DNA of 41,899 bases from Nitrospina sp. Lineage in GTDB: Bacteria; Nitrospinota; Nitrospinia; Nitrospinales; VA-1. The position numbers and the translations under genes are program-made. Location: assembly GCA_018664975.1 (NCBI GenBank), contig JABIXH010000296.1, forward strand, positions 1-41,899, in the 5' to 3' direction. A model generated the notes under the pieces. It was given only the letters and a program-made list of their open reading frames with translations. It searched no databases and was not told the DNA's origin. Within the stretch, counting starts at the first letter, position 1. Every line of letters starts with the position of its first letter. Below are positions 3,724-41,899 of the stretch, piece after piece.

Positions 3724-4452
3724 TTGATCACCCAGGTTAAGTTGGATTATATCAATCGAGTCATTGATGAATGCCTGGACGGTGAGGCATTGGAGTTGAA
3801 AGGTAAATTTCTCGGGGATGAAGGGGTGGAGGCTCTGGTTCAAACCAATCGTATTCTTGATGTCGAAAATCTGGATCTGTCGCGTAATAAACTGACCTGG
3901 CGCGGAGCGCACCATTTGTTTCACTGCCACTTGTTTAAAAATCTAAAACGATTGTATCTGGGCGAAAATAATATTTCTGACAAGGGTGTAAAGGAACTAC
4001 CCTCTGCTAATTTTGCAGAAAACCTCTCCCTCCTGGACCTACGCTATAATAATATTGGTCCTGCCGGTGGGTTGGCAGTGGTTCAATCTGAGAAATTTAG
4101 AAAGCTTCAGGTTTTGATTTTTCAGGAAAATCCTGTGGGGGATGAAACTCTGATAGAACTGGCAAAAGCTCCTACCTTTGCTAACTTGAGAAAGCTGAAT
4201 TTCTACAGAACGGATATAACCCCGAAAGGCATTAAGGTTCTAGCCAAATCCAAAGTGTTGCAAAGGGTTAAACAACTGAACATTGCTAGAAATTATCTTC
4301 ATTTGGAATCTGCCCGACTCTTGGGGAATACCAAGACACTGACCAATATTGAAACCTTGCTCATGTATGACACAGGAATAGGTGATGCCGGGGTCAAGGC
4401 CATCATGGACTCAGAGTCATTTTCTAAACTTAAAACCCTAAGAGTAACCTGA
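3724..4452 (+). CDS. leucine-rich repeat protein, ribonuclease-inhibitor (RNI)-type repeats
   Basis: About 28-aa repeats of the form LxxLxLxxNxIGxxGxxxLa. TTG start 2 nt after the upstream stop. No signal peptide seen. Confidence 0.8.
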   Translation: MITQVKLDYINRVIDECLDGEALELKGKFLGDEGVEALVQTNRILDVENLDLSRNKLTWRGAHHLFHCHLFKNLKRLYLGENNISDKGVKELPSANFAENLSLLDLRYNNIGPAGGLAVVQSEKFRKLQVLIFQENPVGDETLIELAKAPTFANLRKLNFYRTDITPKGIKVLAKSKVLQRVKQLNIARNYLHLESARLLGNTKTLTNIETLLMYDTGIGDAGVKAIMDSESFSKLKTLRVT

Positions 4453-7379: not shown

Positions 7380-10300
7380 ATGAAATTTAAAATTCTTTCC
7401 TTTAATTGGCACGAACCTTATCTTTGTTTACTCGCAAGACTTGGTTATGAATTCCAAATTATAGAACCTGAAGTTGCTCCCGGTCATTACAGGCGATGGG
7501 ATAAAAATATGCGCCCGGTTCCAGAAAACGTGCGCTTGATTTCAATGGCAACTGCTCAGGAAATGCTGGAACTCGGCGAATTTGATCTCATTATCGCACA
7601 CAATATAAAAGATTTGATAGCCGTTAAGGATTACTCTCTGCCTAAAATTATCGTGTTTCACAACTGTTTAACAACAGAAATTGAACTGGGTAAAGCCAAG
7701 GTTTGTCGGAAAGAGTATTTGGAAAAAATCGATTTTCTTCTGGAGGGCGTACAAAAAGTATTTATCTCGGAGAAAAAGCGCCAAGACTGGGGGGCAAGCG
7801 GAGAAGTAATTTTACCTGGTCTTGATATCTCAGATTATGGTGGCTATAGAGGCGAGAGCGAGAGGGTTTTGCAGGTGGGGAATATGTTGCAAGAACGCGA
7901 TTTGATGATGGGCTATTCAGTCAGTAAAAGAATCATTGGAACCCACCCCTTAACGACTCTTGGTTTAAACCCAAGTATTCCAGGCTCGAGGCTGTCAGAG
8001 GGATTTCAGGACCTGATAGAAAATTTCAGGAGTTCCAGAGTTTTTATTAATACTACCGTTGAAGAGTTTGAGGATGGATACAATTTAAGTATGCTTGAGG
8101 CTATGGCCACTGGAATGCCAGTGATCAGTTCAGCGAATAAATCCTCTCCCATAATAGATGGAAAGAACGGTTATATTTCTAATGACATAAAATATTTAAA
8201 CCAGCGAATTGATTTTCTGTTAAGGAACCCAGATGAAGCCAGAAAGCTGGGGGAAAAAGCAAAAGAAACTGTGAAGGAGAAATTTCCATTAACACGATTT
8301 CTCCAGTCATGGCGCAGGGTGATTGAAAAATCAGCCTTAGACTATTTAGAACGAACGGTGATCAATTTAAAAAATACCAACCAACCTTTTAAGGAAAAAA
8401 TCCGAAAAAATATTTTAATGGATTTTGTGTCCTATCCTGCGACCACCGCCTATTTTCTGGAAAGAGCCTTCAGGCAAAAGCACAATGTAATAACTTGCGG
8501 GTCTCAAATAAACGATCAAATTATTAAACTATGGAATCTTGAAGACCTTAATTGGGAAATCACTCCACAGGATTTATACAGAGGAAACACGACTCCTTTA
8601 CAAAAGGTTATGGAAGAATTGCCAGAAGGGTGGCAACCGGATTTCTACCTTTGGATTGAAACGGGATTGAGTGATATCCCATCAGATCTAGGCAGTTTCG
8701 ATCTGCCGAAGGTTTGCTATCTCATAGATACTCATATCCACTATGAGCGACACCTTGAAATTGCCGAAAATTTTGATTTTGTTTTTTTGGCGCAGAAGGC
8801 GTACGTGCCGCAAATGGTAAGGGCAGGCATTAAGAATGTCATGTGGTTGCCCTTGGCATGTGATCCCGAAATTCATGCCAAGGTTGAGGTTGAAAAAGAA
8901 TTTGATGTGGGCTTTGTCGGTTCAATTTCTTTAACACCAGACCGCCGACGAAATCTTTTGGAGAGACTACAGAAACAGTTTGACCTGAAACCTCAACGAA
9001 AATTCATGAATGAAATGGCGGAGCATTATAGTAAGTCACATATCATTTTTAATAACGCCATTAATAACGATCTTAATATGCGGGTATTCGAGGCTTTATG
9101 TAGCGGCAGTCTGCTGGTTACCGATTCAGCACCAGGAAGTGGTCTGGATGAATTATTTTTGGATAAGAAACATTTAGTGATTTACCAGGATGAGAATCTT
9201 GAAGAAGTGGTTTCTTATTATTTGCAAAATAAAGAACACCGGGAGCGCATCTCAATCGAGGGTAGAAAGGAAGTTTTGGCTCGGCACACTTATGGGCACC
9301 GCACCGATGCCATAATAAAATTTTTAAACGAAAATATCACTGGTGTTGAAAAAGAAAAACCGGCCTCGATGGAGGAAAAACCCATTTCCTATTATGAGAA
9401 TATCAGAAACGATTTGATTCCTCTTGTTCCCAGCGATGCCAATTGTATTTTAGAAATTGGCTGTGGGTCAGGAAGGACTGGTCTGGAACTCAAAAAACAA
9501 TATGGAGCTTTTGTCGCAGGAGTTGAATTGAACCCCGTTGCCGCAAATCTTGCCAATGAGGTATTGGATGATGTGGTTCAGGGAAATATTGAATCCATCG
9601 ACCTGCCTTATGGTTCTGGATCCTTTGACTGCATAATGTTTGCGGACGTTCTAGAGCATTTGGTAGATCCTCTTTCTGTTTTGATGAAAGTACGTCCTTT
9701 ATTGAAATATGGAGGGACTGTGGTAACCAGCATTCCCAATGTCCAATTCCATGGAGTCATTCATCAATTGGTGGAAGGGAATTGGACCTATGAAAAAGAA
9801 GGAATTCTTGATGAAACTCATCTCCGTTTTTTTACCTATAAAGAAATTGGAAAAATGTTTGTTAAAGCGGGTTACTCCATTCAGCATATTGAGGAGGTAA
9901 TAGATCCTCAATATGAACAATTTTCTTTAAGTAATACCAACGTCCTCAATTTTGGCAGGACGCAAATAAAAGATTTATCTCCAGAGGAATTTAAGCAGTT
10001 TTTTGTTTTCCAATATTTATTAAGAGCAAAACCAACTAACGTTAATGAGAATGAGGTAAATGATATGTTTCAAAAGGAAGAAACATTGTTTGAAATTGAC
10101 AACATTTTATTAGACGCGTCCAAGGCCTCTGAAGCAGGGGAGCATGAAACTGCATTAAAACTTTATACGGAAGTTATAAAACTATCTTCTGACAATGTTC
10201 AGGCATTGCTTGGAATGGGTAATACCAATATGAAACTTCAACTTCCTGATAAAGCGGAGGCCTTTTTTGAATTAGCTTGTTTAAAAGATCCCAATAACTC

Positions 10301-10763
10301 CAAGGTTTGGCAAGGGTTGGGATTACTGGCTCTTTATAAAAAAGATATTAAACGTGCAGATATTAGTTTTAATAAATCCCTGGAATGTGACCCCAGGAAC
10401 GATAAGGCATTATGTGGCCTGGGGATGTTGAGGGTTAATAGAGAAGACCTTGATGGGGCTGTTGAATATTTTTGTCGCGCTTTGGAAATTAATCCTGACA
10501 ATATTTCCGCTTGTAAATATCTTTTGGAGTTGTCCTATAAACTGGAAAGATTTGAGGCGATTGAAAGGCATTTAAATATATTCATGGAATTTCATCCCGG
10601 AAATCTCAATATGCTTTTTGCTTTAGCCGGGGTTCAGTACAAACTCGGAAAACTTGAAGAATCGATTAATAACCTGGAATGCATTCTTACCTTGGACCCA
10701 GAACACGAATCGGCAATTGAATTAATTGAAACTGTTAAATCTGATCTAGTTCCTAGTAAATAA
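7380..10763 (+). CDS. 1127-aa four-module protein: GT1/GT4-like glycosyltransferase, CgeB-like (DUF3880/Glyco_trans_1_2) glycosyltransferase, class I SAM methyltransferase and TPR array
   Basis: Module 1 carries EDGYNLSMLEAMATGMPVISS. Module 2 carries FDVGFVGS...DLNMRVFEALCSGSLLVTD. Module 3 carries ILEIGCGSGRTG...FADVLEHLVDP...THLRFFT. The C-terminal 230 aa are TPR repeats. Confidence 0.8.
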   Translation: MKFKILSFNWHEPYLCLLARLGYEFQIIEPEVAPGHYRRWDKNMRPVPENVRLISMATAQEMLELGEFDLIIAHNIKDLIAVKDYSLPKIIVFHNCLTTEIELGKAKVCRKEYLEKIDFLLEGVQKVFISEKKRQDWGASGEVILPGLDISDYGGYRGESERVLQVGNMLQERDLMMGYSVSKRIIGTHPLTTLGLNPSIPGSRLSEGFQDLIENFRSSRVFINTTVEEFEDGYNLSMLEAMATGMPVISSANKSSPIIDGKNGYISNDIKYLNQRIDFLLRNPDEARKLGEKAKETVKEKFPLTRFLQSWRRVIEKSALDYLERTVINLKNTNQPFKEKIRKNILMDFVSYPATTAYFLERAFRQKHNVITCGSQINDQIIKLWNLEDLNWEITPQDLYRGNTTPLQKVMEELPEGWQPDFYLWIETGLSDIPSDLGSFDLPKVCYLIDTHIHYERHLEIAENFDFVFLAQKAYVPQMVRAGIKNVMWLPLACDPEIHAKVEVEKEFDVGFVGSISLTPDRRRNLLERLQKQFDLKPQRKFMNEMAEHYSKSHIIFNNAINNDLNMRVFEALCSGSLLVTDSAPGSGLDELFLDKKHLVIYQDENLEEVVSYYLQNKEHRERISIEGRKEVLARHTYGHRTDAIIKFLNENITGVEKEKPASMEEKPISYYENIRNDLIPLVPSDANCILEIGCGSGRTGLELKKQYGAFVAGVELNPVAANLANEVLDDVVQGNIESIDLPYGSGSFDCIMFADVLEHLVDPLSVLMKVRPLLKYGGTVVTSIPNVQFHGVIHQLVEGNWTYEKEGILDETHLRFFTYKEIGKMFVKAGYSIQHIEEVIDPQYEQFSLSNTNVLNFGRTQIKDLSPEEFKQFFVFQYLLRAKPTNVNENEVNDMFQKEETLFEIDNILLDASKASEAGEHETALKLYTEVIKLSSDNVQALLGMGNTNMKLQLPDKAEAFFELACLKDPNNSKVWQGLGLLALYKKDIKRADISFNKSLECDPRNDKALCGLGMLRVNREDLDGAVEYFCRALEINPDNISACKYLLELSYKLERFEAIERHLNIFMEFHPGNLNMLFALAGVQYKLGKLEESINNLECILTLDPEHESAIELIETVKSDLVPSK

Positions 10764-12566: not shown

Positions 12567-14314
12567 TCGTGGCTAAAAATATATTAATTCTAAGTATGAC
12601 CCGAATGGGAGATATGATTCAGACAACTCCCCTGATTAAGGGTTTGAAAGAAAAATATCCCTCAGCCAAGATCACTCTTTTGGTCACCAGTGATTTTTCC
12701 AGTGCCGTGTCTCTGATACCTGAGGTCGATGAATCTATAGTTGTGAATTTGAGACAGTTTGATAATCAAGAAGTTTGGGAAGACCTTTCCTGGATTAAAA
12801 TATACCGTTATCTTGAAGATACATTGGGAGATATTAAAGGTAGAAGTTTTGATTTGCTAGTAAATTTAAGCCATTCAAAATTCAGTGCCCTTATGGTTCG
12901 TTATTTGGGAGCTAAAAATATAGTTGGCTTTTATTGTAACGATTTTGGAAATCGTATGACAGGCCACCCTTGGATGCAGTATTTCAGTGTAGAAATATTC
13001 AATCGTAACTATAATGAGTTTAATCTTGTTGAGATATTTTCAAGGAGTGGAGGTGTTGATGCAAAGGGTCGTTCCATTGCTGTGACCCCCTCGCACGATG
13101 AACTTTCACTTGGTACCTTAATTCCGCCTGAGTTCAATGAAGGCGAGGTCTTGATTGGTATTCAAGCCGGATCCAGTCTGGAAGGTCGGCGGTGGCCCGT
13201 GCAATCATTTGCGGCATTGGCTGATCAGTTAATAGAAAATATTAATGCGCGAATATTGATATTTGGTGTGGAGTCTGAAAATGCAGTGGCTGAAGATGTA
13301 TTAAGTTTTGTTGAAAATAAGGATAAGGTCGTAAACCTTGCCGGCAAAACAACCCTCAGTCAGTTATCGGGATTGTTGGAAAAATGCCAATATTTAGTCA
13401 CTAATGATACCGGAACGATGCATTTGGCTGCGGCCTTGGGAACTAAAATCGTAGGACTCTTTTTTGCCCATGCGCATCCGTATGAAACGGCACCATTTTC
13501 TCCGGGGCATTTGATATTCCAGGCAAGAATTTCTTGTGCACCCTGTAGTTATGGAGTGCACTGCAACAATATAGTTTGTATTGACAAGGTAAACCCCCAA
13601 GACCTTTCTTCGGTGATTGAGAGTCATATAATAACTAAATCATGGGTTCTTCCTGAGCAAGTTAATACAAAATCTGAATTAAACGTATATGAAACCGTTT
13701 TTGATTTTGATGATAATTTCCAATTACGGCCTCTTGTAAAGCACAGGTTACAAATAGATGATATGTTCCGGACGGCCTATACCCTTTTGTGGAGGAATAG
13801 TCTTGACGAAAAAATGAAGGCAAATGATTTCGAATTCCTCATAAATGGGGTTTGCGAAAACTTGAATCGTGATTATGATTGTACTGATATAGATTCGGTG
13901 GATGAACAATTAGAAAAAAAATATTTAGCTTTAGAGGAGATTGTGAAACTTGCATTTAAAGGAAGGAAGCAATGTGGGAACCTCATCAGAGAAGTTTCTG
14001 GTATAAAGGGGAGTCCAGACAAAATTGCTCAGTCTAGTGCTGAAATTACACGCATTGATGAGAAGATTGAAGAATTGGGGCTTACTAACCCCGAATTGCG
14101 TCCTTTATCTGATATGTTCAGTAAAAGAAAAGAAAATTTTGCAGGTAACAATGTTTGTCTTTTGGCTATTGAAACCCGGAAGGAATACAATAATTTGATC
14201 GATGAATGTGAAAAGCTGAGTACTATTTTAAATAGTTGTCGGAAAAAATTGACGGGCACCAAGCCTTGCTATATTTCGCATGATTCCATTAATGTGGCGG
14301 TTCCCGGTAGGTAG
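12563..14314 (+). CDS. glycosyltransferase family 9 (heptosyltransferase-like) with a C-terminal extension of about 230 aa
   Basis: GT9 hallmarks: ILILSMTRMGDMIQTTPLIKGLKEKYP near the N-terminus and TNDTGTMHLAAALGTKIVGLF. The listed TTG start overlaps the upstream stop, and GTG at 12569 is an alternative. Confidence 0.8.
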   Translation: MIVAKNILILSMTRMGDMIQTTPLIKGLKEKYPSAKITLLVTSDFSSAVSLIPEVDESIVVNLRQFDNQEVWEDLSWIKIYRYLEDTLGDIKGRSFDLLVNLSHSKFSALMVRYLGAKNIVGFYCNDFGNRMTGHPWMQYFSVEIFNRNYNEFNLVEIFSRSGGVDAKGRSIAVTPSHDELSLGTLIPPEFNEGEVLIGIQAGSSLEGRRWPVQSFAALADQLIENINARILIFGVESENAVAEDVLSFVENKDKVVNLAGKTTLSQLSGLLEKCQYLVTNDTGTMHLAAALGTKIVGLFFAHAHPYETAPFSPGHLIFQARISCAPCSYGVHCNNIVCIDKVNPQDLSSVIESHIITKSWVLPEQVNTKSELNVYETVFDFDDNFQLRPLVKHRLQIDDMFRTAYTLLWRNSLDEKMKANDFEFLINGVCENLNRDYDCTDIDSVDEQLEKKYLALEEIVKLAFKGRKQCGNLIREVSGIKGSPDKIAQSSAEITRIDEKIEELGLTNPELRPLSDMFSKRKENFAGNNVCLLAIETRKEYNNLIDECEKLSTILNSCRKKLTGTKPCYISHDSINVAVPGR

Positions 14315-15828
14315 GAAGCCATATCCCCCTTTGCTTTCTCTTTTAAAAAACCATGTAGGAATTCGAGAGAGGCACCTCCCCCTGTGGAGACGAAAAAGTT
14401 TTTGGCGAAATAATTCCATAATTGGTATGCATCATTTTCAAGGAAGTCGATGGATATTTGATTGCGATTAATGGTCGGGTGAAATTGTTTTTCAATTTGA
14501 AGTTTGATCATTTTTTTTAATTCGGTAATTCCTATTTTGTTGAGAATTGCCGCAGAATCTCCTCCTCCAATAACTACAGACATTTTAGGATTTGATAGAG
14601 CTGATTGAAAAAGCAATTTTGCTAATTCCAAAGACCCTTCTGCATAATAACTGCAAGCAGGGTGGTCGTAGGCACCCAAGGGTCCGTTCCAGAATACATT
14701 TTCGATATCCTTGAAAAGATCTTCAAATTGAGCAATTGTTTTTTCTCCTAAATCCAACTGTAGCTCTTTGGAGAAGTCGGGCGAACTTTTATTTTCAAAA
14801 ATTGTGCTTTGAAAATCCGTGACTATTTTATAGTCTTCGGGTAAGCACAGGCTTACTTTGTTGACCTCAGCGAGTTCAATGATTTTTTCAGCGAGGTTGA
14901 TTTCGTTTAGAAGTTCTATGTTTTCATTATCGGCCTGGCTTTGTAATTTTGTGGGTAAGGTGTCTTTTTGAAAAGGTTTTAATAATTCCTTTTGTTGTTG
15001 GGCTAAAAGGAAAGCGTTGGCCATTTTTCCACCGATTAAAATGGTTTTAACTCCGGTAGAAACAAATTGTTTCAAAATTTCAATTTTATCCGATACCTTA
15101 GCTCCCCCTGCTACGACCAGGGTTTTTCTGGGCTTGGATAAAACTTTGCTGCCAAACTTCCCAAGACGGGCAATTTCTTCGTAAAGGAGAACACCTGATA
15201 CCACCGGTTTGCCTTTTCGCCGCATTAATTGAGGTAAAAGCTTAATGCTCTTGGTCACTCGATGACTACAGCCAAATGCGCAGTTTATATAGACATCCGC
15301 TATATCCGCCAATTGGGTGATAATTTCTGTACGGTAGATGTCTGTGTTCTTTGGGTCTAAAAGATATCGCAAATTAGGAAGAAATTTGATTCCACCTGGC
15401 GGTAAACGTTTATGCGATACAATTTCCAAAGAATGTTGCATATGGGAGTCAATCGTTTCAGGCGGAAAAATAGTGTAAGTGTCACCATAAATCCTGCGAA
15501 TCAAAGTGTCAAAATGAGAGGAAACAAATTGTATGTTGAAGATACCATCCCATCCAGAATGGTCTTTAGTTTTATGAGGTCGACCTAAGTGCGAACCTAT
15601 AATCATTCGACAGTCACCTTCTGTTAATTCATGAATTTTTCTGAAGGTGAGATCCAGAAAACGCCGGATTCGGGTATCATCTGCGACTCGATATAATCCT
15701 TTCGCGGTGGACCGCAAAGGAACGTTAAAATCACACCGGATAAATATAGTTTTGCCTCTTAAATCATCCGATTTCAATTCTGCCAATTGGGTCATTCCAA
15801 TTGAATTTGTCGAACTTGAGTTTGCCAT
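14269..15828 (-). CDS. pgk: phosphoglycerate kinase homologue, unusually long (519 aa) and divergent
   Basis: PGK motifs present: CDFNVPL, GSHLGRP, VVAGGAKVSDKI, LIGGKMANAF, FWNGPLG, VIGGGDSAA, STGGGASLEFL. AGGAA lies 6 nt before the ATG. Several insertions relative to the usual PGK of about 395 aa. Confidence 0.8.
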   Translation of the reverse strand: MANSSSTNSIGMTQLAELKSDDLRGKTIFIRCDFNVPLRSTAKGLYRVADDTRIRRFLDLTFRKIHELTEGDCRMIIGSHLGRPHKTKDHSGWDGIFNIQFVSSHFDTLIRRIYGDTYTIFPPETIDSHMQHSLEIVSHKRLPPGGIKFLPNLRYLLDPKNTDIYRTEIITQLADIADVYINCAFGCSHRVTKSIKLLPQLMRRKGKPVVSGVLLYEEIARLGKFGSKVLSKPRKTLVVAGGAKVSDKIEILKQFVSTGVKTILIGGKMANAFLLAQQQKELLKPFQKDTLPTKLQSQADNENIELLNEINLAEKIIELAEVNKVSLCLPEDYKIVTDFQSTIFENKSSPDFSKELQLDLGEKTIAQFEDLFKDIENVFWNGPLGAYDHPACSYYAEGSLELAKLLFQSALSNPKMSVVIGGGDSAAILNKIGITELKKMIKLQIEKQFHPTINRNQISIDFLENDAYQLWNYFAKNFFVSTGGGASLEFLHGFLKEKAKGDMASYLPGTATLMESCEI

Positions 15829-18359: not shown

Positions 18360-19094
18360 TCATCCGACAGATTTAGCACAACGAAAACCGGTGTCCCAGT
18401 ATCGCATTTGAGGAGGGGAAAAATTTCGGTAAGGTAGCATTGTGAACTGTTTTAAAAACCCGTGTTCACGTTTATTAATTGAACCGCCACGGGTCACCTT
18501 GAATTTCTCCCCAAAGTTATTATCTTGCAGAATGGAGTTGGGGTAGGGTTTGTACCAGCTTGCGGTCCATTCCGAAACATTTCCATTCATTCCCCATATA
18601 CGATAGGTGCTGACATCTCCCTCAAGGGCGTTTACCGGTTGTACTTGTTTGCCGAAATTAGCAGTGCCCTTTTCGAAATCGTTGCCCCATACGAAAAGTC
18701 GGTTGTCACTCCCTCGGGCCGCTTTTTCCCATTCATACTCTAACGGCAGACGCTTACCTGCCCAAAGACAATAGGCATCGGCTTCGTACCAACTGATTCC
18801 GCTGACTGGTAAGTTCATTTGCTGAACAGGGTATTGTGCCTGGGGTTTAAACTTCATAAACTCCTCATAGGTGACCTCAAACTGGTCTATATAAAAGGCC
18901 TTCAATAAATATTGTTGCTCCGGTTGTGCATTGAGGGCAGATGTTTTTTCCGACATGAATTGCAGGATTTTACTCTCGGGATTGAGACCCAATGTGAATT
19001 CGCCTTCAGGAATGAGGACCATCCCTATTTGTTTCTGGGCTTCGCAAGAAACAAAGAGTATTGATAGGAGTGCAATCAGGAGTATTCTATTCAA
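18360..19094 (-). CDS. FGE-sulfatase (SUMF1/EgtB/PvdO) domain lipoprotein lacking the FGE catalytic Cys pair
   Basis: Lipobox-like signal (LLSILFVSCEA). Family motifs FYIDQFEVTYEEF, SEWTASW, TRGGS, GFRCA. Its stop lies 3 nt from the convergent rne stop. Confidence 0.85.
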   Translation of the reverse strand: MNRILLIALLSILFVSCEAQKQIGMVLIPEGEFTLGLNPESKILQFMSEKTSALNAQPEQQYLLKAFYIDQFEVTYEEFMKFKPQAQYPVQQMNLPVSGISWYEADAYCLWAGKRLPLEYEWEKAARGSDNRLFVWGNDFEKGTANFGKQVQPVNALEGDVSTYRIWGMNGNVSEWTASWYKPYPNSILQDNNFGEKFKVTRGGSINKREHGFLKQFTMLPYRNFSPPQMRYWDTGFRCAKSVG

Positions 19095-33597: not shown

Positions 33598-34350
33598 ATG
33601 TCTTCAGTTTTCGATTCTCAGGCTTTTAATGCCAATCTCTTTTTTCCTAGAGGTGATACAGGGTCCACTCCGGATAATTGCGATGAAATTCAGGTAAAAG
33701 TTGCACCGGAAACATCTATCCATGTACGTCGGCATCCATCCTCCGAAGCACGATTCAGTTTATTATTTTTTCATGGTAATGGAGAGATTGTATCGGACTA
33801 CGATAATTTCGCGGAAATTTTTAATTCAATGGGGGCTGAATTGGTCATTGCTGATTTTCGTGGTTATGGAAGGAGTACAGGGTCCCCCACTCTCAGGGCT
33901 AGCCTTGAAGACGCGCACAAAATTTATGATGAACTTAAATCAAATGGTAAGTTAAAAGAAAAAGTCTGTATTATGGGCCGTTCTCTTGGCAGTGCGCCGA
34001 CTCTGGAGCTTTGCGCCAAACGTTCTGATGTCGCAGGATGTGTTCTAGAAAGCGGTTATGCAGACCCCATTCCACTGGTAGAAAGGCGCGGATTGAAAAT
34101 TGATAAAACCACGCCTGATGAAGATGAGGTTTTTAATAACAGCCAGAAGATTCGTTCAGTAAAATGCCCACTTCTTATCATGCATGGCTCCGACGATTTT
34201 TTGATATCACCCCATGAAGCCAAGTTGAATTATGATAATGCCGGGTCTAAATTAAAACATCTTGAAATATTGGAAGGGGTAGGGCACAACGATATGATGA
34301 TGAACCCTTCCTATTTTTCTACCTTAAAACAGTTTTTTGATTCTTTGTGA
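33598..34350 (+). CDS. alpha/beta-fold hydrolase
   Basis: FFHGNGE oxyanion region, nucleophile elbow GRSLGS, late HG.DD and GHND segments. 250 aa. Confidence 0.75.
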   Translation: MSSVFDSQAFNANLFFPRGDTGSTPDNCDEIQVKVAPETSIHVRRHPSSEARFSLLFFHGNGEIVSDYDNFAEIFNSMGAELVIADFRGYGRSTGSPTLRASLEDAHKIYDELKSNGKLKEKVCIMGRSLGSAPTLELCAKRSDVAGCVLESGYADPIPLVERRGLKIDKTTPDEDEVFNNSQKIRSVKCPLLIMHGSDDFLISPHEAKLNYDNAGSKLKHLEILEGVGHNDMMMNPSYFSTLKQFFDSL

Positions 34351-34363
34351 CAGGGAGTTTATT

Positions 34364-35560
34364 TTGAAAAAATTTTATAATATTGAAGGTTTGATTCGGA
34401 GCGGATTTAAATTAAGCCGTGACTATGAAACCCTCGATTTTACTTTTGCCAAATTCGGTGATGATGCAGTGCGAGAAATGGTTAAATCGCGCTCCATTAA
34501 ACAGGTACGCAGACTGACCATCAATGGAAAAAAGTTGACCGCAGTATCGGCGCAGGCATTGGCGGGTTCTGACAAGCTACCTAATCTGGAATCCTTGAAA
34601 TTGTATAAAAACAAAATAGGGGATGAAGGAGTAAAATATATAGCCGAATCTGATCGACTTCCAAATCTCAAATCCCTGCGATTAGCTTGGAATGAGATAG
34701 GTCCCGAAGGAGTTCGTAATCTGGCTGAATCCACTCACTTGGGAAACTTGACTTCCCTGACACTATCAGAAAATCAAATCGGTGATGAAGGGTTGAAATA
34801 TCTGGCTGAATCCAAATCCCTGAGCAGTCTGGAGATTATTGATCTCAGGAAAAACCAGATTACCGATGCCGGAGCCGTTGCATTGTCTAAAAGTAAAAGC
34901 CTGCCTAAACTGCAATCCATCGACCTTACTGATAACGCATTAACGGTGAAAGGAAAGGATGCCCTGGCCGAGTTTAAAGTTTTTAATCTTATTCGCGCAC
35001 GACTCAGTGAAGATGGCAACAAACTGGATCTCAGTAATCTGGGTATTGGAGATGTTGAGTGCAAGTGTATTGCTGAATGCGAAGATTTGATGGACTTGAC
35101 CCATCTATATCTGGAACTGAATAAAATCACAGAGAAAGGCATTGCTCACCTTGCAAGCAGTGAATATTTGAAAAATGTTACCCTTCTTTCTCTCGATCGC
35201 AACAAAATTGGAGATGAGGGTTTTATTCATATCATTAAGTCAGAAACCTTGCAGAATATTCAGGTGCTGATGGTCGAAAATGCTGGCATTACAGACGAAG
35301 GCATCAATGTAATTTGTGAAGAAGAATGCATGAAAAATCTGCTCCGCTTGTATATTGAAGAAAACGATACCACTGAAGAGGGGCTGGAGCTACTGGCCGA
35401 GCCGGAGCATTTGCAACAACTTGAATACCCAGAATTTGACCGCGAAGAAGAAATAGAAGAAGAGGAAGAGGACGAAGAAGAATTCGAAGATGTCGAAGAC
35501 ATCGAGGAAATTGAGGAAGAAGAAGACCTCGATGATGATACAGAATATGAAAATCAATAG
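34364..35560 (+). CDS. RNI-type leucine-rich repeat protein with poly-acidic C-terminal tail
   Basis: Repeats of the form LAES..L.NL.SL.L..N.IGDEG.KY. The tail is EEEIEEEEEDEEEFEDVEDIEEIEEEEDLDDD. The ORF track starts at TTG 34337, overlapping the hydrolase. I prefer TTG 34364, which lies 6 nt after AGGGAG. Confidence 0.75.
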   Translation: MKKFYNIEGLIRSGFKLSRDYETLDFTFAKFGDDAVREMVKSRSIKQVRRLTINGKKLTAVSAQALAGSDKLPNLESLKLYKNKIGDEGVKYIAESDRLPNLKSLRLAWNEIGPEGVRNLAESTHLGNLTSLTLSENQIGDEGLKYLAESKSLSSLEIIDLRKNQITDAGAVALSKSKSLPKLQSIDLTDNALTVKGKDALAEFKVFNLIRARLSEDGNKLDLSNLGIGDVECKCIAECEDLMDLTHLYLELNKITEKGIAHLASSEYLKNVTLLSLDRNKIGDEGFIHIIKSETLQNIQVLMVENAGITDEGINVICEEECMKNLLRLYIEENDTTEEGLELLAEPEHLQQLEYPEFDREEEIEEEEEDEEEFEDVEDIEEIEEEEDLDDDTEYENQ

Positions 35561-35746: not shown

Positions 35747-37228
35747 ATGTATGGTCGATTCTTGATTTATTTGTTCTCTTTTTTAACTCTCCTTTTTACT
35801 TCTGAACCTTCTTGGGCGGAAAAAAGCCAGGAAATCGAAATCATTGTGGACGGTTCCGGCAGTATGGCTGGAAAAATGGAAGGTTCCACTAAGCTTGCCA
35901 TCGCCAAGCAATCCCTCGCTAAAATTGTCAACGAAATACCCCCGGGTTCCCAAGTCGCTCTCAGGGTCTATGGTCAGAATTTCTCTGTCGATGAAAAAGA
36001 ACAGAGCTGTCAGGATTCTGAATTAATTTATCCCATGGGGCCAATCGATAGCGAAGTTCTTACTCAAAAAATCCAATCGATAAAAGCTAAAGCTTACACC
36101 CCAATTGCGTTCAGCCTTGCCGAAGCTGGGAAAGATTTCTTAGCCAAGGACAACAGGTTTATTATGCTGGTTAGTGATGGTATAGAGACATGTGGTGGGG
36201 ATCCATGCCAGGTGGCCAGGGATATTCAGACTACGGGAGCTCCTCTTGTTATTCATAGCATAGGGTTCGATGTTGATGAAAAAGCCCGAGAGCAGTTAGT
36301 TTGTATTGCAGAAGTTTCTGGAGGGAAATATTTTGACGCAAAAGACGCAAAGGGCCTTTTCACATCCCTCCAAACGATTGCCAAACAGGAATTGAAACCG
36401 GTGGAACCTATGACTCAGGCCGAACTGCCTCTTGAGGAACCCCAAAACGAGGAGCCTAAATTTTTGGCGCCTCCCAAAAAGACACGTTTCGGTGAATGGA
36501 TTCGCGGAGGGCGCTATTATGAGGATGCGATCCCGCTCAAACCCGGAAAATACCGTATTGATCATGATTTGCGGCAGGGGGAATATGATTACTTCAAAAT
36601 CAGCCTTAACAATGGGCAAAAGCTTCGCATTCAATATACCACTCAGGACGAAGGAAGTGGTTGTGCTGGTGCGGCGATACATTCCAAGGATCGTCTCAAA
36701 TTGTTAAGCAATTATATTGTTTATAAAAGCTCGACCGGAGAAACAGATCTGGAGGTGTTTGATTTGGAAAAGGCTCCCGTAGAATTCTATGTGCTTATCG
36801 GGAGTACCTGTCAGGGCGTTCAAAGTAAAGATACTATGTTGGATATTTTTATAGAAGACCGTTTTGATGGCGGGAGTGGTCAGGAGGCAGGCCCCAAACT
36901 GAAAAAACCGTTACCTATTAAACCAGGGAAACATGAAGAGAACTGGTTACAGCTCAAGTCTGATGTAGACACTTTTGTAGTCACGGGTAAGCCTGGCAAG
37001 GAATTGCACGTGAAGGTTTTACCAGAAAGTGAAATCGCTACATTAAAATTCTCTCTCTACAATGAAGACCGGGAAAGATTGCTTTATGCTCAGGCCAAAA
37101 ATAATGGTGCGGTAGTAAAAGGTAAGGTCTTGGTGAGTGAGGACTATCCGGAAATTTATATTCAAGTTTCTGGTTTTAACGCTACAAAATATAGTTTAAA
37201 AATTCAAAGTCGGGAACCAAAGAAGTGA
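35747..37228 (+). CDS. secreted von Willebrand factor A (VWA) domain protein with two C-terminal PPC-like beta-domains
   Basis: ATG 35747 lies 7 nt after GAGGAG (the track lists TTG 35732). Signal peptide ends ...SEPSWA/EK. MIDAS motif DGSGSM. Two similar C-terminal segments (IPLKPGKYRIDHDL..GEYDYFKISL and LPIKPGKHEENWLQL.SDVDTFVVTG). Confidence 0.8.
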   Translation: MYGRFLIYLFSFLTLLFTSEPSWAEKSQEIEIIVDGSGSMAGKMEGSTKLAIAKQSLAKIVNEIPPGSQVALRVYGQNFSVDEKEQSCQDSELIYPMGPIDSEVLTQKIQSIKAKAYTPIAFSLAEAGKDFLAKDNRFIMLVSDGIETCGGDPCQVARDIQTTGAPLVIHSIGFDVDEKAREQLVCIAEVSGGKYFDAKDAKGLFTSLQTIAKQELKPVEPMTQAELPLEEPQNEEPKFLAPPKKTRFGEWIRGGRYYEDAIPLKPGKYRIDHDLRQGEYDYFKISLNNGQKLRIQYTTQDEGSGCAGAAIHSKDRLKLLSNYIVYKSSTGETDLEVFDLEKAPVEFYVLIGSTCQGVQSKDTMLDIFIEDRFDGGSGQEAGPKLKKPLPIKPGKHEENWLQLKSDVDTFVVTGKPGKELHVKVLPESEIATLKFSLYNEDRERLLYAQAKNNGAVVKGKVLVSEDYPEIYIQVSGFNATKYSLKIQSREPKK

Positions 37229-37247: not shown

Positions 37248-37874
37248 ATGAAGCTATTAAATTGCTTACTTGCTTTTTGGTTGATTTCAGGATGCATTAC
37301 ACCTCCTCTTTTGGCACAAGAAAGTTCGGGATTATCTCCTCAAACAAAGCCTGTTGTCATGATAATGATCAATGAGCAAATCTGGGTCGAAAATCAGGTT
37401 ATTTATGACTATTACGGCAACTTGTCTAAAGTAATGAATATATGGACTAGCGTTTCCCAGGCGGATACCACATTTACAAGTGCATTTCTTGAAAAGGGGT
37501 TCAAAGTGATAGGTAGCGGGGTACCAAATACCACCAAAGGAAAGGTGAGTCGGGACGATATGTTGAAAGCCATGGAAGGAGATGACCTGACCTCTACTTA
37601 TCTGGGGAATTATTTAAAGGCAGATCTGGTTATCGTGGGTCAGGTGGTGGCACGCGGTGTGACGCCATTGAGTAATTCTAGACAAAAATCTGCACGGGCC
37701 AACCTTAATGTAAGAGCTGTGCGAGTGGATACAGGTGAAATAATTGCTGTAGCTAGTGGGCAAGGCACTGCGGCGGCCATTGATGAAATAAGTGCCGGAG
37801 TAGACGCCATTAAGAGGGCCACTAAAGTTACTGCGGAGAAACTCGTTAGTACGATAATTGATAAAGTTCCATGA
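37248..37874 (+). CDS. lipoprotein with a CsgG/LpoB-like N-domain pattern, unknown function
   Basis: Lipobox LISGC. The segment KADLVIVGQVV...ANLNVRAVRVDTGEIIAVASGQG mimics the CsgG-family core pattern. An alternative TTG start lies at 37230. Confidence 0.55.
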   Translation: MKLLNCLLAFWLISGCITPPLLAQESSGLSPQTKPVVMIMINEQIWVENQVIYDYYGNLSKVMNIWTSVSQADTTFTSAFLEKGFKVIGSGVPNTTKGKVSRDDMLKAMEGDDLTSTYLGNYLKADLVIVGQVVARGVTPLSNSRQKSARANLNVRAVRVDTGEIIAVASGQGTAAAIDEISAGVDAIKRATKVTAEKLVSTIIDKVP

Positions 37875-37930: not shown

Positions 37931-38833
37931 GTGAAAAAACCGGCTAAAAAAACTCAATTAATTCTCGCTTTAACACTGGTATCTTCCTTTTTGTGGATAC
38001 CAGTATCTTATTCCGAAGAATTCAAAAAAACCATTGCTGTATCCAGATTTGATGTTCGGGTGGGAAAGTCAACCCTTGGAGAAGGAATGTCGGACATGCT
38101 GGCCGATTCGCTTATTCAAAGCGGAAGTTTTGTGGTACTGGAGCGTCAGACACTGGAGGACATCATCACCGAGCAGGATCTTGCTGCAAGCGGTAGAGCC
38201 GCAGTATCGAAATCTGCTCAGACTGGCAAATTAATTCCCTCCCAGATCTTGATCAAGGGAACGGTCACCGAATTCGATGAAAAAACCGAAAGCAGTGGCA
38301 CCGGGATTGGATTTGGTGGGTTCAACATTGGTTCCAGTTCCACTGCGGCTCATGTGGCGGTTATTTTAAGAATTATCGATACTACTTCGGCAGAGGTTCT
38401 CGACTCCATCAGGGTGGAAGGCAAGGCAGAAGGAAGTGGGCTCAAGTTGGGAGGTTCCATTGCAGGTATTAGTTTGGGGACGGAAGGTTTTTCAAAGACG
38501 CCGTTAGGAAAAGCTACTCAGATTGCTATTGACAACGCAGTAGAAAAAATTGTTGCTCGTTTGCAAACGATTCCCTTTTCCGGAAAAATCATCAAGGTTT
38601 CGGGAGACACCATTTATACCAATCTGGGAGGGAGAAATGGTGTGTCGGTGGGGGATCTTTTTAATGTTTACAATCCCGGCGAGTCATTGATTGACCCTGA
38701 CACGGGAGAAAACCTGGGTTCCGAAAAAACCAAAACCGGGTCCTTAAAAATCAATTCGGTTCAGGAAAAATTTTCCAAAGCCAGCGCAGAAACAGGAGAA
38801 CTTTTTGAAAAAGGATTTCAACTGACAGAATAA
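37931..38833 (+). CDS. CsgG-family (curli production assembly/transport component-like) protein with an extra C-terminal beta-domain and no cysteine
   Basis: GTG 37931 lies 7 nt after GAGGAG (the track lists TTG 37916). CsgG-like core: IAVSRFDVRVGK...GMSDMLADSLIQSGSFVVLERQTLEDIITEQDL, QILIKGTVTEFDE, AHVAVILRIIDTTSAEVL. The signal peptide has no lipobox. Confidence 0.8.
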   Translation: MKKPAKKTQLILALTLVSSFLWIPVSYSEEFKKTIAVSRFDVRVGKSTLGEGMSDMLADSLIQSGSFVVLERQTLEDIITEQDLAASGRAAVSKSAQTGKLIPSQILIKGTVTEFDEKTESSGTGIGFGGFNIGSSSTAAHVAVILRIIDTTSAEVLDSIRVEGKAEGSGLKLGGSIAGISLGTEGFSKTPLGKATQIAIDNAVEKIVARLQTIPFSGKIIKVSGDTIYTNLGGRNGVSVGDLFNVYNPGESLIDPDTGENLGSEKTKTGSLKINSVQEKFSKASAETGELFEKGFQLTE

Positions 38834-38845
38834 AAGGAGTATGTC

Positions 38846-39067
38846 ATGAAACATGCTTGGAGATATTTTTCACTCCTATTGCTACTGATTTTTTCTTTTT
38901 CCGGTTGCGCCTCGATGAATGAGCCTCTGGATTCTGCCAATGAGAGTGCCGAGGAAATAGGAAAACCTGTGGGGAAAATTATGAAGATACCCGGATCGGC
39001 TACAAAAGGAGCCGCTGAAGGCATGCATACAAAAGAGAACGACCCTAATAATCCTTATGACAGATAG
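38846..39067 (+). CDS. 73-aa mini-lipoprotein
   Basis: AAGGAG 7 nt upstream of the ATG. Lipobox-like FSFSGC after a hydrophobic signal. The mature part is short and hydrophilic. Confidence 0.6.
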   Translation: MKHAWRYFSLLLLLIFSFSGCASMNEPLDSANESAEEIGKPVGKIMKIPGSATKGAAEGMHTKENDPNNPYDR

Positions 39068-39157
39068 CTGAAAAAAAAACTAACTATTCCAAAAAATAGC
39101 TGGTTGATTGTGAAATAGGGGATCGTTTATAAAGCCCCTGGAAGGATTTTTGAACGC

Positions 39158-41899
39158 ATGCAAGCCAGATTTTCATTTCATTTTCTTTTATATAAAACAT
39201 CCCAAAGTTTGCTCCATCGCCTGCCATTAAACATTCATAGCCGGAAGAAACCGATCCTTTGGAGTAGCTTTTTAATTCTATCCGTTATCCTTTTTACCCC
39301 CTTCCTAGATCGTTCTGCTCATGCCGATATCAGGGCGGATATTAAAATGGCGCGGGAAGCGGTGGCCACTGCGGAAAAGAATTTAAATGCCGCAGAGCGG
39401 AGGATAATTTCTTTTGCCAATGGAGAATTAACTTCTGCAAGAAATAGGTTTCGGGAAGCAGAGGAGAATTGGAAGAAATTCCGCAGAAAAATAAATGAAA
39501 AGGAACTTCAACTAAAAATAGAGTCTGAAAAAAATCGACTGGATCTGGAAAATGTATTTAAGCAAAAGAAAAAGTTTTCAAGCAAGTCAGAAACTTTTAG
39601 GAAATTGGAGAAAGAAATAAGGCGTTTGATTGGGGAAGCGGAAAATATAACCGCAAGAAAAAAGAAATTAGTCGATGTTGAGATAAAAAACGATCTGACT
39701 ATTTTTAACGAGTATGTTGCGGCAGATTCTGACCTGTCCGCAGTAGCGTCTGATTTCAGAGAGGTCATAAAGGCTCGGGAAAGAGTTTTTTCACTTTTGA
39801 CCCGCGTAAAGGATAATCTGTTTCAACTCAGAAAAGATGCTCCAAGCCTGCTGGAATATGAGGCCCCTCCGTTTTTGAAAACTGTCGAAGCTGTTAAGGA
39901 CGAAATCCAATTTTATTATCATCAATGGGTGCCGATCGAAGTTGAAGAATTAGAAAAAGAAATTAGTGTCGTCCAGAATTTATTGTCTCAAAATATCTCA
40001 AATCGAGACGAACTTTTTTCCCAAAAAAAGGAAGCATTTAACAAATATTTTGAAGCTGGAATTTTATTAAGAGGTACTGAGAAAAACCTGATTAATGTAG
40101 TGGAAAGTATTTTCTGGTATGACCTTTGGCTGGATTTTTCTGATAAGACCATGGATATTATTTTGGATGCTCGAAAGGTTGGGCCGGCGGCTGCTATCAT
40201 AAGTGCTGCTGGAGGAGAGCTTTTGGACCTTGGTATTAGTACCATCTTCCCCGGCGAAAAATCTCAATTGTATGACATTTCTGAATTTACGAGTTGGCAG
40301 ATAAAAAAGCCAGCAGGTAAAAATCAGCAGTCTCTTGGGAAAGTAGCCTGGGATACTTCTAAGGATCTTTTAAATAGTAAGGGGAAGGGGGTTGTCAAAG
40401 GAGTAATTACAGAATTTATCGAAGGAATCAGCCCCAGCGAGAAACTATTGAATACAAATATCCTGGAATTACATTCAGCGGTATTGGAAGAAGTCTGGCC
40501 TCAAGCCAAAGCAACTGAAGGTTTTTTAGATAGGTTAAACGATGCTAATAAATTAAAAGATATTTCAGGCTTCACCAAAAAAGGGGCTCTGAGTTTTGGG
40601 ACAAATTTCATAAAAAAGAAAAATATCGATTTTGCTAAAGAAGAAATGAAAAAAGTTATTGTTAATTCGCATCCTGACTTTTTGGAATACCTTGATAAAA
40701 GGGCGACCTTTGTTTTCACAGGCATGCAAAACCGGTATTTCGCCAATCAACTAGATGTGGTAAACGTCGAGATTACAGCTCTTGATGAAGTTTTGAACGA
40801 CCTTCTTGATGAACTGGATGGAAAACGATTTAAGAGAAACCTAGACGAAGACAAATTTGCTAGGAATATCGATAAGGAATCGGTCAACCTAACCCTGACT
40901 TTTAGTTCAGACATTGATGATGTCAAAGTTGCGGTTGATGGAAGGCGCCTTAAAGGTTCTGTTGCAGGAAATATATGGACAGGTTCATTGAATAACACAA
41001 TAGCCTTAGATGCTAACCTATCAATCTTTGGCGTAGATAAAGTTTCACGAAAACAGCTGGATGGGGATCCTGAAACAATTGCCCGGTTAGATTTGAGTTC
41101 AGATGAAAACTCTGAGTTCATAGGCTATGAAGAAAGAAGCGATATTACTCACACTCTGAATTTTGGGGAACCAGATACGCAAGAGTTAGCTGGATCAGGC
41201 GAATGCATAGATAGTATCACCTTTAAGAAGACGGTTAGGGCTATTGGTGATGCAGGTTTCGAATCCGTTGACGTTGATCCCTCTCAGAGAGCGCCTGATC
41301 CTCCTCCCTTGAATCATCATTATAGCCAACCCCACCGCATAGGTTCTCCGTTTACCCTGCACGGATGGGGATACAATCTTGCGCTCAATTATTATTACTT
41401 CGATCTCGCAAACGATGCCCTATTGTATGAGCCTAATGTTTGGAAGGAAGGGCATAGCGGTGTTGTGGATGTGGAGCGTCTCTCTACCAGGGATTCATCC
41501 CAGTTTCCGGGACTGAAAGTGGTCTCGTTTAAAAAAAGGCCCTGCCTCTGTATTAAGACGATGGAGTTAAGAAATTTCGTCAGGAATAAAGACGAAAATG
41601 AGATTCCCGTAAAGGTGCGACTTAAAAAGGATTCTGAGGGAATAGCATTAGATGAAAGACAGAGTTTCAGATTCCGGGGTGCGGCCAAATGTCTGAAACT
41701 TTCCTCCAGCGGGAAAAATCTTAAGGATGAAGATGCGGAAACTGGTGAAATTTGTGGCAAAGACTTGTATAGACCTCGGTATAAAAACTTGTCGGGTTTA
41801 TCCATTGGCAAATATAGTTTGGGAGATTGTTCTACCGGGCCGAATACCTATTCATTACAACTTTTAGAAGAGCCGGTTTTTAAAGAAAGAATCGATATC
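39158..41899 (+). CDS. large secreted coiled-coil protein (at least 914 aa, 3'-truncated by the window); absent from the supplied ORF track
   Basis: Hand translation from ATG 39158 runs without a stop to nt 41899 (2742 nt, exactly 914 codons). In-frame TAG at 39116-39118 upstream. Signal-like N-terminus (ILWSSFLILSVILFTPFLDRSAHA/DI), about 250 aa of K/E/R-rich heptad-like sequence, then mixed domains with clustered Cys near the end. The listed minus-strand ORFs here are S/F-rich antisense artefacts. Confidence 0.7.
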   Translation, partial: MQARFSFHFLLYKTSQSLLHRLPLNIHSRKKPILWSSFLILSVILFTPFLDRSAHADIRADIKMAREAVATAEKNLNAAERRIISFANGELTSARNRFREAEENWKKFRRKINEKELQLKIESEKNRLDLENVFKQKKKFSSKSETFRKLEKEIRRLIGEAENITARKKKLVDVEIKNDLTIFNEYVAADSDLSAVASDFREVIKARERVFSLLTRVKDNLFQLRKDAPSLLEYEAPPFLKTVEAVKDEIQFYYHQWVPIEVEELEKEISVVQNLLSQNISNRDELFSQKKEAFNKYFEAGILLRGTEKNLINVVESIFWYDLWLDFSDKTMDIILDARKVGPAAAIISAAGGELLDLGISTIFPGEKSQLYDISEFTSWQIKKPAGKNQQSLGKVAWDTSKDLLNSKGKGVVKGVITEFIEGISPSEKLLNTNILELHSAVLEEVWPQAKATEGFLDRLNDANKLKDISGFTKKGALSFGTNFIKKKNIDFAKEEMKKVIVNSHPDFLEYLDKRATFVFTGMQNRYFANQLDVVNVEITALDEVLNDLLDELDGKRFKRNLDEDKFARNIDKESVNLTLTFSSDIDDVKVAVDGRRLKGSVAGNIWTGSLNNTIALDANLSIFGVDKVSRKQLDGDPETIARLDLSSDENSEFIGYEERSDITHTLNFGEPDTQELAGSGECIDSITFKKTVRAIGDAGFESVDVDPSQRAPDPPPLNHHYSQPHRIGSPFTLHGWGYNLALNYYYFDLANDALLYEPNVWKEGHSGVVDVERLSTRDSSQFPGLKVVSFKKRPCLCIKTMELRNFVRNKDENEIPVKVRLKKDSEGIALDERQSFRFRGAAKCLKLSSSGKNLKDEDAETGEICGKDLYRPRYKNLSGLSIGKYSLGDCSTGPNTYSLQLLEEPVFKERIDI

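Follow-up and report, generated by a model that had tools for sequence, protein, structure and literature searches.

The stretch of DNA analysed here (the window, 41,899 nucleotides in length) comprises positions 1 to 41,899 of the forward strand of contig JABIXH010000296.1, from a Nitrospina sp. assembly (GCA_018664975.1). Nitrospinota include marine nitrite oxidisers, and few of their members have been cultured. Towards its 3' end, the window carries five tightly packed genes on one strand, encoding a VWA protein, a CsgG-like lipoprotein, a CsgG homologue, a 73-amino-acid (aa) lipoprotein and a large protein whose gene is cut by the window end. Here, we describe this large protein, its relatives and the CsgG-containing cassette next to which it is encoded. 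Judging by the names of the closest CsgG matches (see below), the hosts appear to be marine Nitrospinota-like bacteria. The features of the cassette are as follows (window positions, with the type of evidence in brackets; MIDAS, metal ion-dependent adhesion site; dN/dS, ratio of non-synonymous to synonymous substitution rates).

35747 to 37228, plus strand: gene for an exported protein that combines an intact VWA domain of the MIDAS type with two PPC-like beta domains (domain searches)
37248 to 37874, plus strand: gene for a CsgG-like lipoprotein with lipobox LISGC and a weak CsgG match (domain searches)
37931 to 38833, plus strand: gene for a CsgG homologue with an FlgT_C domain and no lipobox cysteine (domain searches)
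38846 to 39067, plus strand: gene for the 73-aa lipoprotein, lipobox FSGC (sequence)
39140 to 39146, plus strand: Shine-Dalgarno-like GGAAGGA, 11 nt 5' of the start codon (read from the sequence)
39158 to 41899, plus strand: large-protein gene, truncated by the window end after codon 914 of 1115 (translation, sister contigs, dN/dS, codon usage)

The plus-strand frame that opens at ATG 39158 is confirmed as a real gene. Its computed translation runs through 914 codons to the last base of the window with zero stops, in agreement with an earlier note on this DNA that had relied on translation by hand and had allowed for a missed in-frame stop; the remaining five frames of 39158-41899 contain 24-85 stops each, and their longest open run is 150 codons. 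The closest in-frame stop 5' of the start codon lies at 39116, and ATG 39158 is the first start codon thereafter. A TTG start at 39209 was considered and rejected, because the residues MQARFSF, encoded upstream of it, are also found in the orthologue, where no start codon corresponds to this TTG. The list of open reading frames (ORFs) gives only minus-strand ORFs of 81-138 aa over this interval, because frames that run off the window are unlisted. These ORFs are S/F/L-rich, as had been noticed before, and their earlier interpretation as antisense artefacts is borne out by the stops in the other frames and by codon usage, which in the plus-strand frame correlates with that of nine other window genes at r=0.92 (0.38-0.44 for the other five frames). 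Against the orthologue described below, the gene has a dN/dS of 0.28, indicative of purifying selection. The opposite reading, in which the frame arose by chance or is decaying and the true genes are on the minus strand, has a single point in its favour, namely that the large protein contains no known domains; set against it are the stop-free codons and the codon usage, the dN/dS value together with a conserved orthologue and synteny, and distant homologues that share invariant residues. Codon usage and homology, either of which might have spoken for the minus strand, thus both favour the plus-strand frame; we attach practically no probability to the opposite reading, and a non-coding artefact is excluded.

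The full-length gene was found on sister contigs, which were located by looking up the 73-aa protein encoded just 5' of it. Three of these contigs (L009, from NCBI assembly GCA_018649235.1, L010 and L011) match the final 3.6-13 kb of the window at 99.9-100% identity, and another (L012) codes for the same 1115-aa protein. On the sister contigs the frame stops after 1115 codons, with one amino acid change relative to the window (T742A). The 201 aa beyond the window are Pro/Ser/Thr/Gln-rich and apparently disordered, ending ...LIPKFPEYKKST...SKPMISNELRDRIKAFPRRKQTED; in the full-length copy, a disordered linker of this composition (~150 aa) is followed by a C-terminal bipartite motif (aa 1061-1115 on L009). 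Past the window end, L009 also carries, 3' of the large gene, a gene for a 230-aa exported protein. The earlier description of the large protein as the largest of the cluster holds for the VWA/CsgG cluster and fails window-wide, where the ORF at 7380-10763 encodes 1127 aa versus 1115 aa.

The domain anatomy of the large protein was assigned with the help of an AlphaFold2 (AF2) model built on a 17-sequence family alignment (mean predicted local distance difference test score, pLDDT, 68.5), in which the helices and the beta sandwich are confident; a model based on a two-sequence alignment was unusable (pLDDT 34.5). The following parts are distinguished.

39158 to 39325, plus strand: extended signal peptide, aa 1-56, with hydrophobic core aa 32-50 and A-H-A before D57 (hydropathy, conservation)
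39326 to 39862, plus strand: first part of a helical stalk, made up of two very long helices (aa 54-137 and aa 145-235; AF2, pLDDT ~76-91; heptads from ~aa 127)
39863 to 39934, plus strand: family-signature beta hairpin, aa 236-259, APPFL..V......Y..W (alignment, AF2; hairpin at 240-259 in the model)
39944 to 40252, plus strand: third long helix, aa 263-341, running into a conserved amphipathic segment, IFWYDLWLDF...GPAAAIISAAGGELLDLG (aa 318-365; pLDDT low past aa 314)
40253 to 40828, plus strand: variable, mostly helical middle, aa 366-557 (alignment, AF2)
40832 to 41161, plus strand: Ig-like beta sandwich, aa 559-668 (alignment, AF2, beta periodicity)
41204 to 41548, plus strand: lineage-specific insertion of ~115 aa, aa 683-797, not present in the orthologue P0001 (pairwise alignment)
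41549 to 41872, plus strand: 4-Cys beta domain, aa 798-905, with C798, C845, C866 and C891 (alignments to the orthologue and to a protein encoded at locus L025)

Sec-type export is predicted from the signal peptide, which had been recognised in the earlier note and is conserved in both its hydrophobic core and its A-x-A site; at 56 aa it is unusually long, has a basic n-region and includes the invariant MQARFSF. The mature N-terminus (DIRADI or DIRTEI) is kept in three lineages, among them the orthologue and the distant relative P0003, and all six cysteines lie within aa 682-891, four of them conserved in the orthologue, which was counted in favour of export. Of the hairpin residues, Y253 and W257 are invariant family-wide, P237 and P238 nearly so, and the variable middle ends in a 52-residue helix bearing the conserved pattern L.EL..ER....R. 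The Ig-like sandwich, with weak Foldseek matches to IPT/CBM sandwiches, holds residues F582, D635, E658, D662 and H665, which are invariant in all 17 family members, and beta periodicity reaches its maximum at aa 547-630. P0001, which is without the ~115-aa insertion, has a ~50-aa low-complexity insertion after aa 385 instead; whole segments have been gained and lost between close lineages. A long heptad-like region had been proposed to follow the signal peptide. Helical structure is indeed found across aa 54-341, with a significant 3.5-residue hydrophobic periodicity only at about aa 127-252 and 267-336; the particular segment that had been quoted as an example shows no significant periodicity. 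About two thirds of the large protein is not coiled coil and consists of further helices, the Ig-like sandwich and Cys-bearing beta domains.

Searches of the large protein against Pfam, NCBIfam, PADLOC and PDB sequences returned nothing specific, which agrees with the earlier failure to recognise a catalytic motif: the PDB profile matches are generic coiled coils (e.g. SMC and tropomyosin), and the anti-phage defence models of PADLOC gave no match. A Foldseek comparison of the AF2 model with the PDB yielded nothing at E <1e-3, the best matches being Ig-like sandwiches and BAR-like helices at E >0.03, and a comparison with viral models gave no meaningful match (tape-measure matches had template modelling scores of ~0.15). 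The only orthologue cluster retrieved by word-indexed searches, whether with the single protein or with a family profile, was P0001 (1095 aa; 46% identity by local BLASTP, 51% by MAFFT), their candidates probably being saturated by low-complexity words. An HMMER profile scan of 1.84 billion cluster representatives retrieved 20 proteins at E up to 1e-3, with matches of E 1e-47 to 1e-4 that cover profile positions ~38-362 and 581-742, that is, the stalk and the Ig-like domain. The alignment of 17 family members (15 full-length relatives, the window protein and P0001) contains eight invariant columns, namely the initiator Met, Y253, W257, F582, D635, E658, D662 and H665. Hallmarks of the family are a signal peptide, the stalk, an APPxL..Y.A.W hairpin, a W...EL.DSA..I..D.K..GP.A segment and the Ig-like domain, and the window protein shares with it the profile similarity over stalk and Ig-like domain, the invariant residues and the APP motif.

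A VWA domain with a D.SGSM MIDAS comes directly after the Ig-like domain in 12 of the 17 members (12 of the 15 full-length relatives); no fused VWA is found in the window protein, P0001, P0003, P0005 or P0016. At three loci (L018, L019 and L020), the VWA-fused gene is followed by a gene for a homologous PPC-like ‘EPND’ beta-sandwich repeat protein with a C-terminal membrane anchor. In the window lineage, the VWA and PPC-like domains are found in one separate exported protein, encoded three genes 5' of the large gene in the same apparent operon. The fusion pattern in the relatives argues for a joint function of the large protein and the VWA-PPC protein, the latter being a likely partner supplied in trans. 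By these comparisons, the large protein belongs to a very rare family of predicted exported proteins, without structural or functional annotation and linked to VWA domains via gene fusion.

At the same three loci, the fused VWA match halts at Pfam positions ~120-133 of 174, at the protein end (L018:5062-9174, L019:5456-10311 and L020:159-4645), and the next gene, encoding the PPC-like repeats and anchor, includes a stretch similar to the final third of a VWA domain. When both pieces are joined, the Pfam VWA match becomes longer in two of the three cases, and hhalign selects exactly the VWA-like stretch (E=8e-4, probability 24%); the VWA domain may be split across two adjacent genes in these relatives.

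The CsgG homologue of the window (37931-38833) matches the Pfam model at E=6e-39, and its alignment with the structures of E. coli CsgG (E=1e-7) includes the first transmembrane hairpin. Its homologues number 851 at E up to 1e-10, and the nearest of those that carry names are 66-73% identical proteins from Nitrospinae/Nitrospinota metagenome-assembled genomes (MAGs), referred to at NCBI as ‘CsgG/HfaB family protein’. Its signal peptide ends in SYS, before EE, without a lipobox cysteine, and the weaker CsgG-like protein encoded 5' of it has LISGC, a pairing that suggests a mixed assembly of lipidated and non-lipidated CsgG proteins. The gene order of the cassette is identical in the sister lineage, and the cassette was inspected in four further loci.

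L025 (Nitrospinae MAG): VWA protein, 210-aa homologue of the CsgG-like lipoprotein, two CsgG, 72-aa lipoprotein, 1403-aa protein, 318-aa protein
L023 (Nitrospinota MAG): 200-aa homologue, CsgG, 72-aa lipoprotein, 516-aa protein, VWA protein
L026 (Omnitrophica MAG) and L031 (3.4-Mb contig): CsgG and 72-aa lipoprotein pair alone

The L025 VWA protein is 54% identical to that of the window. A small lipoprotein comes after CsgG of this type in all six other lineages examined; the 72-73-aa lipoproteins share a conserved core, GKPVGKVMKIPGSA..GAAEG, and those compared have 50-74% mutual identity. CsgG/FlgT_C and the 72-73-aa lipoprotein are an undescribed conserved pair that is found with or without payload genes. 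The large gene is placed directly after this pair, in the position of a payload gene, and with the context supplied by the comparative loci its earlier characterisation as the least explainable protein of the cluster no longer applies.

The C-terminal bipartite motif of the large protein reads IPxxPxY ... KPMIsxxLxxxIkxFPRR and is found, in the more general form IPxxPxY...PM[IV][SP]xxLxxx[IF][KR]xF, in other products of the cassette.

Large protein of the window lineage: GLIPKFPEY...SKPMISNELRDRIKAFPRR
Downstream 230-aa protein: EYIPELPGY...SQPMISKKLTESFKIFPRQ
1403-aa protein of L025: DVIPKIPRY...SKPMIPKGLREHIRSF
516-aa protein of L023: DVIPQVPGY...GPMIPEGLMNQIRSFPRR

Over their bodies, neither the 1403-aa nor the 516-aa protein is homologous to the large protein; what they have in common with it is a Pro-rich linker and the bipartite motif. 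When the window and all non-redundant loci examined were scanned in six frames with a regular expression, the motif was found six times, in four lineages, each time in the gene right after the CsgG-lipoprotein pair or in its adjoining gene, and zero times elsewhere. It lies at the C-terminus of the window-lineage protein and near the N-terminus of the 1403-aa and 516-aa proteins, flanked by disordered linkers in each, and with this variation in position it behaves as a short docking motif. The 4-Cys domain is also shared: it aligns with a segment of the 1403-aa protein at Smith-Waterman z=6.8 and 6.0 (300 shuffles), with the four cysteines in register. The 1403-aa payload (L025:6280-10491) is composed, in order, of an N-terminal Ig-like domain, linker and motif, a 4-Cys domain, tandem TETVP repeats and a metzincin-like end, HELGHLFGAEH (HELGHLFGAEHPDGG), from which it follows that cassette payloads can be enzymes. 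Further searches were made with patterns from these proteins: scans of species-representative genomes gave zero matches, both with IFWYDLW plus MQARFSF and with CsgG N-terminal patterns (the latter uninformative), and when metagenomes were scanned with the motif alignment, only the two already known lineages came up.

As a side observation, P0003 (L016:10001-13267), the closest VWA-less distant relative of the large protein, has at its C-terminal end ...YPPEKQKELIDKIRSMPPEERKK, a sequence similar to the docking motif's second half; next to its gene lie two-component genes and one for a receiver-T2SSE ATPase, with no CsgG.

The large protein and its downstream payload diverge quickly. Between two sister lineages they are 54% and 66% identical (large protein and 230-aa payload, respectively), versus 80-92% for the other eleven of the twelve neighbouring genes compared. 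The corresponding dN values are 0.36 and 0.23, versus 0.05-0.09 in nine neighbouring genes, and the dN/dS values are 0.28 and 0.21, with 0.04-0.10 for neighbours. The large-protein gene evolves 4-7x faster than its neighbours. The motif segment is the best conserved part of the large protein, with a dN of 0.148 versus 0.29-0.51 elsewhere.

Several other genes of the window are mentioned here for completeness. Two encode LRR_6 (ribonuclease-inhibitor-type) repeat proteins (34337-35560 and 3724-4452), of which the one adjoining the cassette has an extremely acidic tail (EEEIEEEEEDEEEFEDVEDIEEIEEEEDLDDD) and is syntenic, with 86% identity. The phosphoglycerate kinase ORF (14269-15828, minus strand) is 519 aa long, and its Pfam PGK match spans residues 22-493 for a model of 379 positions, which suggests a large insertion in this enzyme. 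The 1127-aa multidomain protein encoded at 7380-10763 combines two glycosyltransferase regions with a methyltransferase domain and TPR repeats, and two more glycosyltransferase genes come after it. The 42-kb window also holds two formylglycine-generating-enzyme-like (FGE-sulfatase) genes (2942-3721 and 18360-19094, minus strand), one of which adjoins an HmuY-like gene.

Taken with the cassette loci, the motif and the rates, the reading that we favour, and to which we give an even chance, is that the large ORF encodes a Sec-exported modular envelope protein which is the variable payload of a CsgG/VWA cassette in Nitrospinota-like bacteria. Such a cassette would consist of a VWA protein, a CsgG-like lipoprotein, CsgG and the ~72-aa lipoprotein, with one or two payload genes at its end. 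Once exported by Sec, the large protein would be docked to the cassette by its linker and motif, probably with help from the 4-Cys domain, either at the CsgG-type outer-membrane channel or at the MIDAS site of the VWA protein, and the docked protein would be tethered at, or threaded through, the outer membrane. There, the stalk and Ig-like body could form, together with the VWA-PPC protein, an environmentally exposed complex for metal-dependent adhesion or scaffolding. The partner of the motif, the crossing of the outer membrane and the ligand of the large protein are steps of this model that we infer only.

In the main rival explanation, which we regard as rather unlikely, the large protein is a periplasmic scaffold whose helical stalk would bridge or gauge the periplasm and organise a ring or platform of CsgG/FlgT_C-type proteins and the small lipoproteins, with no transport through CsgG, much like flagellar H-ring proteins or LpoB-type regulators. 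The FlgT_C domain of the CsgG homologue, its weak LpoB matches and its missing lipobox fit such a role, as does the wide occurrence of the CsgG and 72-aa lipoprotein pair without a payload gene, by which the pair has a function of its own; besides generic coiled-coil proteins, the weak N-terminal coiled-coil matches of the large protein include EnvC (M23 peptidase), RipA and Lpp. A dN/dS of 0.28 versus 0.04-0.10 for the neighbours and the swapping of payload bodies between lineages would, however, be unusual for an internal scaffold, and the alignment of the CsgG homologue with E. coli CsgG over the first transmembrane hairpin also speaks against it.

Rapid diversification, together with the long helices, the conserved hydrophobic/amphipathic segment and the metzincin-like end of the L025 payload, is also what one might expect of a secreted effector or toxin, in which case the cassette would be an exporter of polymorphic effectors and the large protein a non-enzymatic, membrane-active helical protein of the ClyA/XaxA kind with aa 318-365 as its insertion element. 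This we consider decidedly improbable: Foldseek gave no pore-forming-toxin match in the PDB, the hydrophobic segment contains conserved charged residues, there is no evident immunity-like gene, and most relatives have an adhesion-type VWA domain instead. The more specific idea of an alpha-pore-forming toxin (ClyA/XaxA-type) was dropped for want of a fold match in the PDB, at moderate model confidence.

Known systems resemble the proposed exported payload and its cassette in part. Curli (type VIII) secretion shares with the window a true CsgG homologue in the same string of genes, and a narrow pore could accommodate the long disordered segment found in the cargo candidate of the window. The window differs in having no curlin repeats, CsgE, CsgF or CsgC (none was found in Pfam/NCBIfam scans of the neighbours, and the DNA holds no meaningful tandem repeats and no Pfam curlin match), in a CsgG with an FlgT_C domain and without a lipobox, and in its second CsgG-like lipoprotein, 73-aa lipoprotein and VWA protein. 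The cargo candidate is moreover a large folded multidomain protein, and while curli cargo is recognised by an N-terminal N22 segment, the candidate signal of the window is a bipartite motif flanked by linkers, which lies C-terminally in the large protein and internally in the other payloads. In the Caulobacter holdfast anchor (HfaA/HfaB/HfaD), a CsgG/HfaB-family outer-membrane protein is encoded beside a large non-amyloid surface-anchored partner; organism and gene set differ from those of the window, whose CsgG matches the HfaB model only at E=0.0034 and 16.6 bits (cut-off 300), and profile scans detected no HfaA-like or HfaD-like sequences. The stalk/Ig-like/VWA family (P0003-P0021) is alike in signal peptide, stalk, hairpin, GP.A segment, Ig-like domain and invariant residues; in place of its fused VWA, the window protein has the insert, the 4-Cys domain, the disordered linker and the docking motif, with VWA and PPC-like domains on a separate gene. 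Fibrillar coiled-coil or VWA surface adhesins include the Myxococcus VWA adhesin CglB, pilus-tip VWA adhesins and M-protein-like stalks. They are alike by analogy only, in a stalk that presents a MIDAS-type domain off the cell and in rapid diversification as in exposed proteins; no similarity in sequence or fold was detected, and the window is without sortase, pilus or autotransporter anchoring signals.

A number of these observations weigh against an exported payload of a CsgG/VWA cassette. CsgG pores admit unfolded chains only, and a folded helical protein of 1000 aa is an unlikely classical substrate; the lipid-anchor cysteine missing from the window CsgG and the absence of CsgE, CsgF, CsgC and curlin-repeat proteins from the neighbourhood are to be counted here as well. 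No structural relative pointing to adhesion was among the Foldseek results, and the AF2 model itself is poor at aa 314-404 and 459-501 and ends before aa 673. Promoter and terminator scans were at chance level, so that the operon structure is only suggested by gene spacing. The association between motif and cassette comes from four lineages of one phylum, with binding proposed from sequence, and three loci of distant body relatives (L016, L018 and L019) lack an adjacent CsgG gene, so that body family and cassette can be separated.

CsgG-like proteins are spread across many bacterial phyla (PMC13397529). No paper on a CsgG cassette with VWA proteins, or on a motif of this kind, was found in the literature. 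To our knowledge, curli export is the sole secretion role of CsgG-like proteins described in detail. A more far-reaching proposal, which we put forward tentatively, is that non-curli CsgG homologues may be display or secretion systems that read polymorphic, non-amyloid payloads via a linker-flanked motif and a 4-Cys adaptor, the large protein being one such payload with a VWA adhesion subunit. If true, non-curli CsgG channels would thereby have their first cargo code. The cassette itself, in which payload genes differ completely between lineages and one short motif stays constant, offers a handle for mutation, pull-downs and genome mining.

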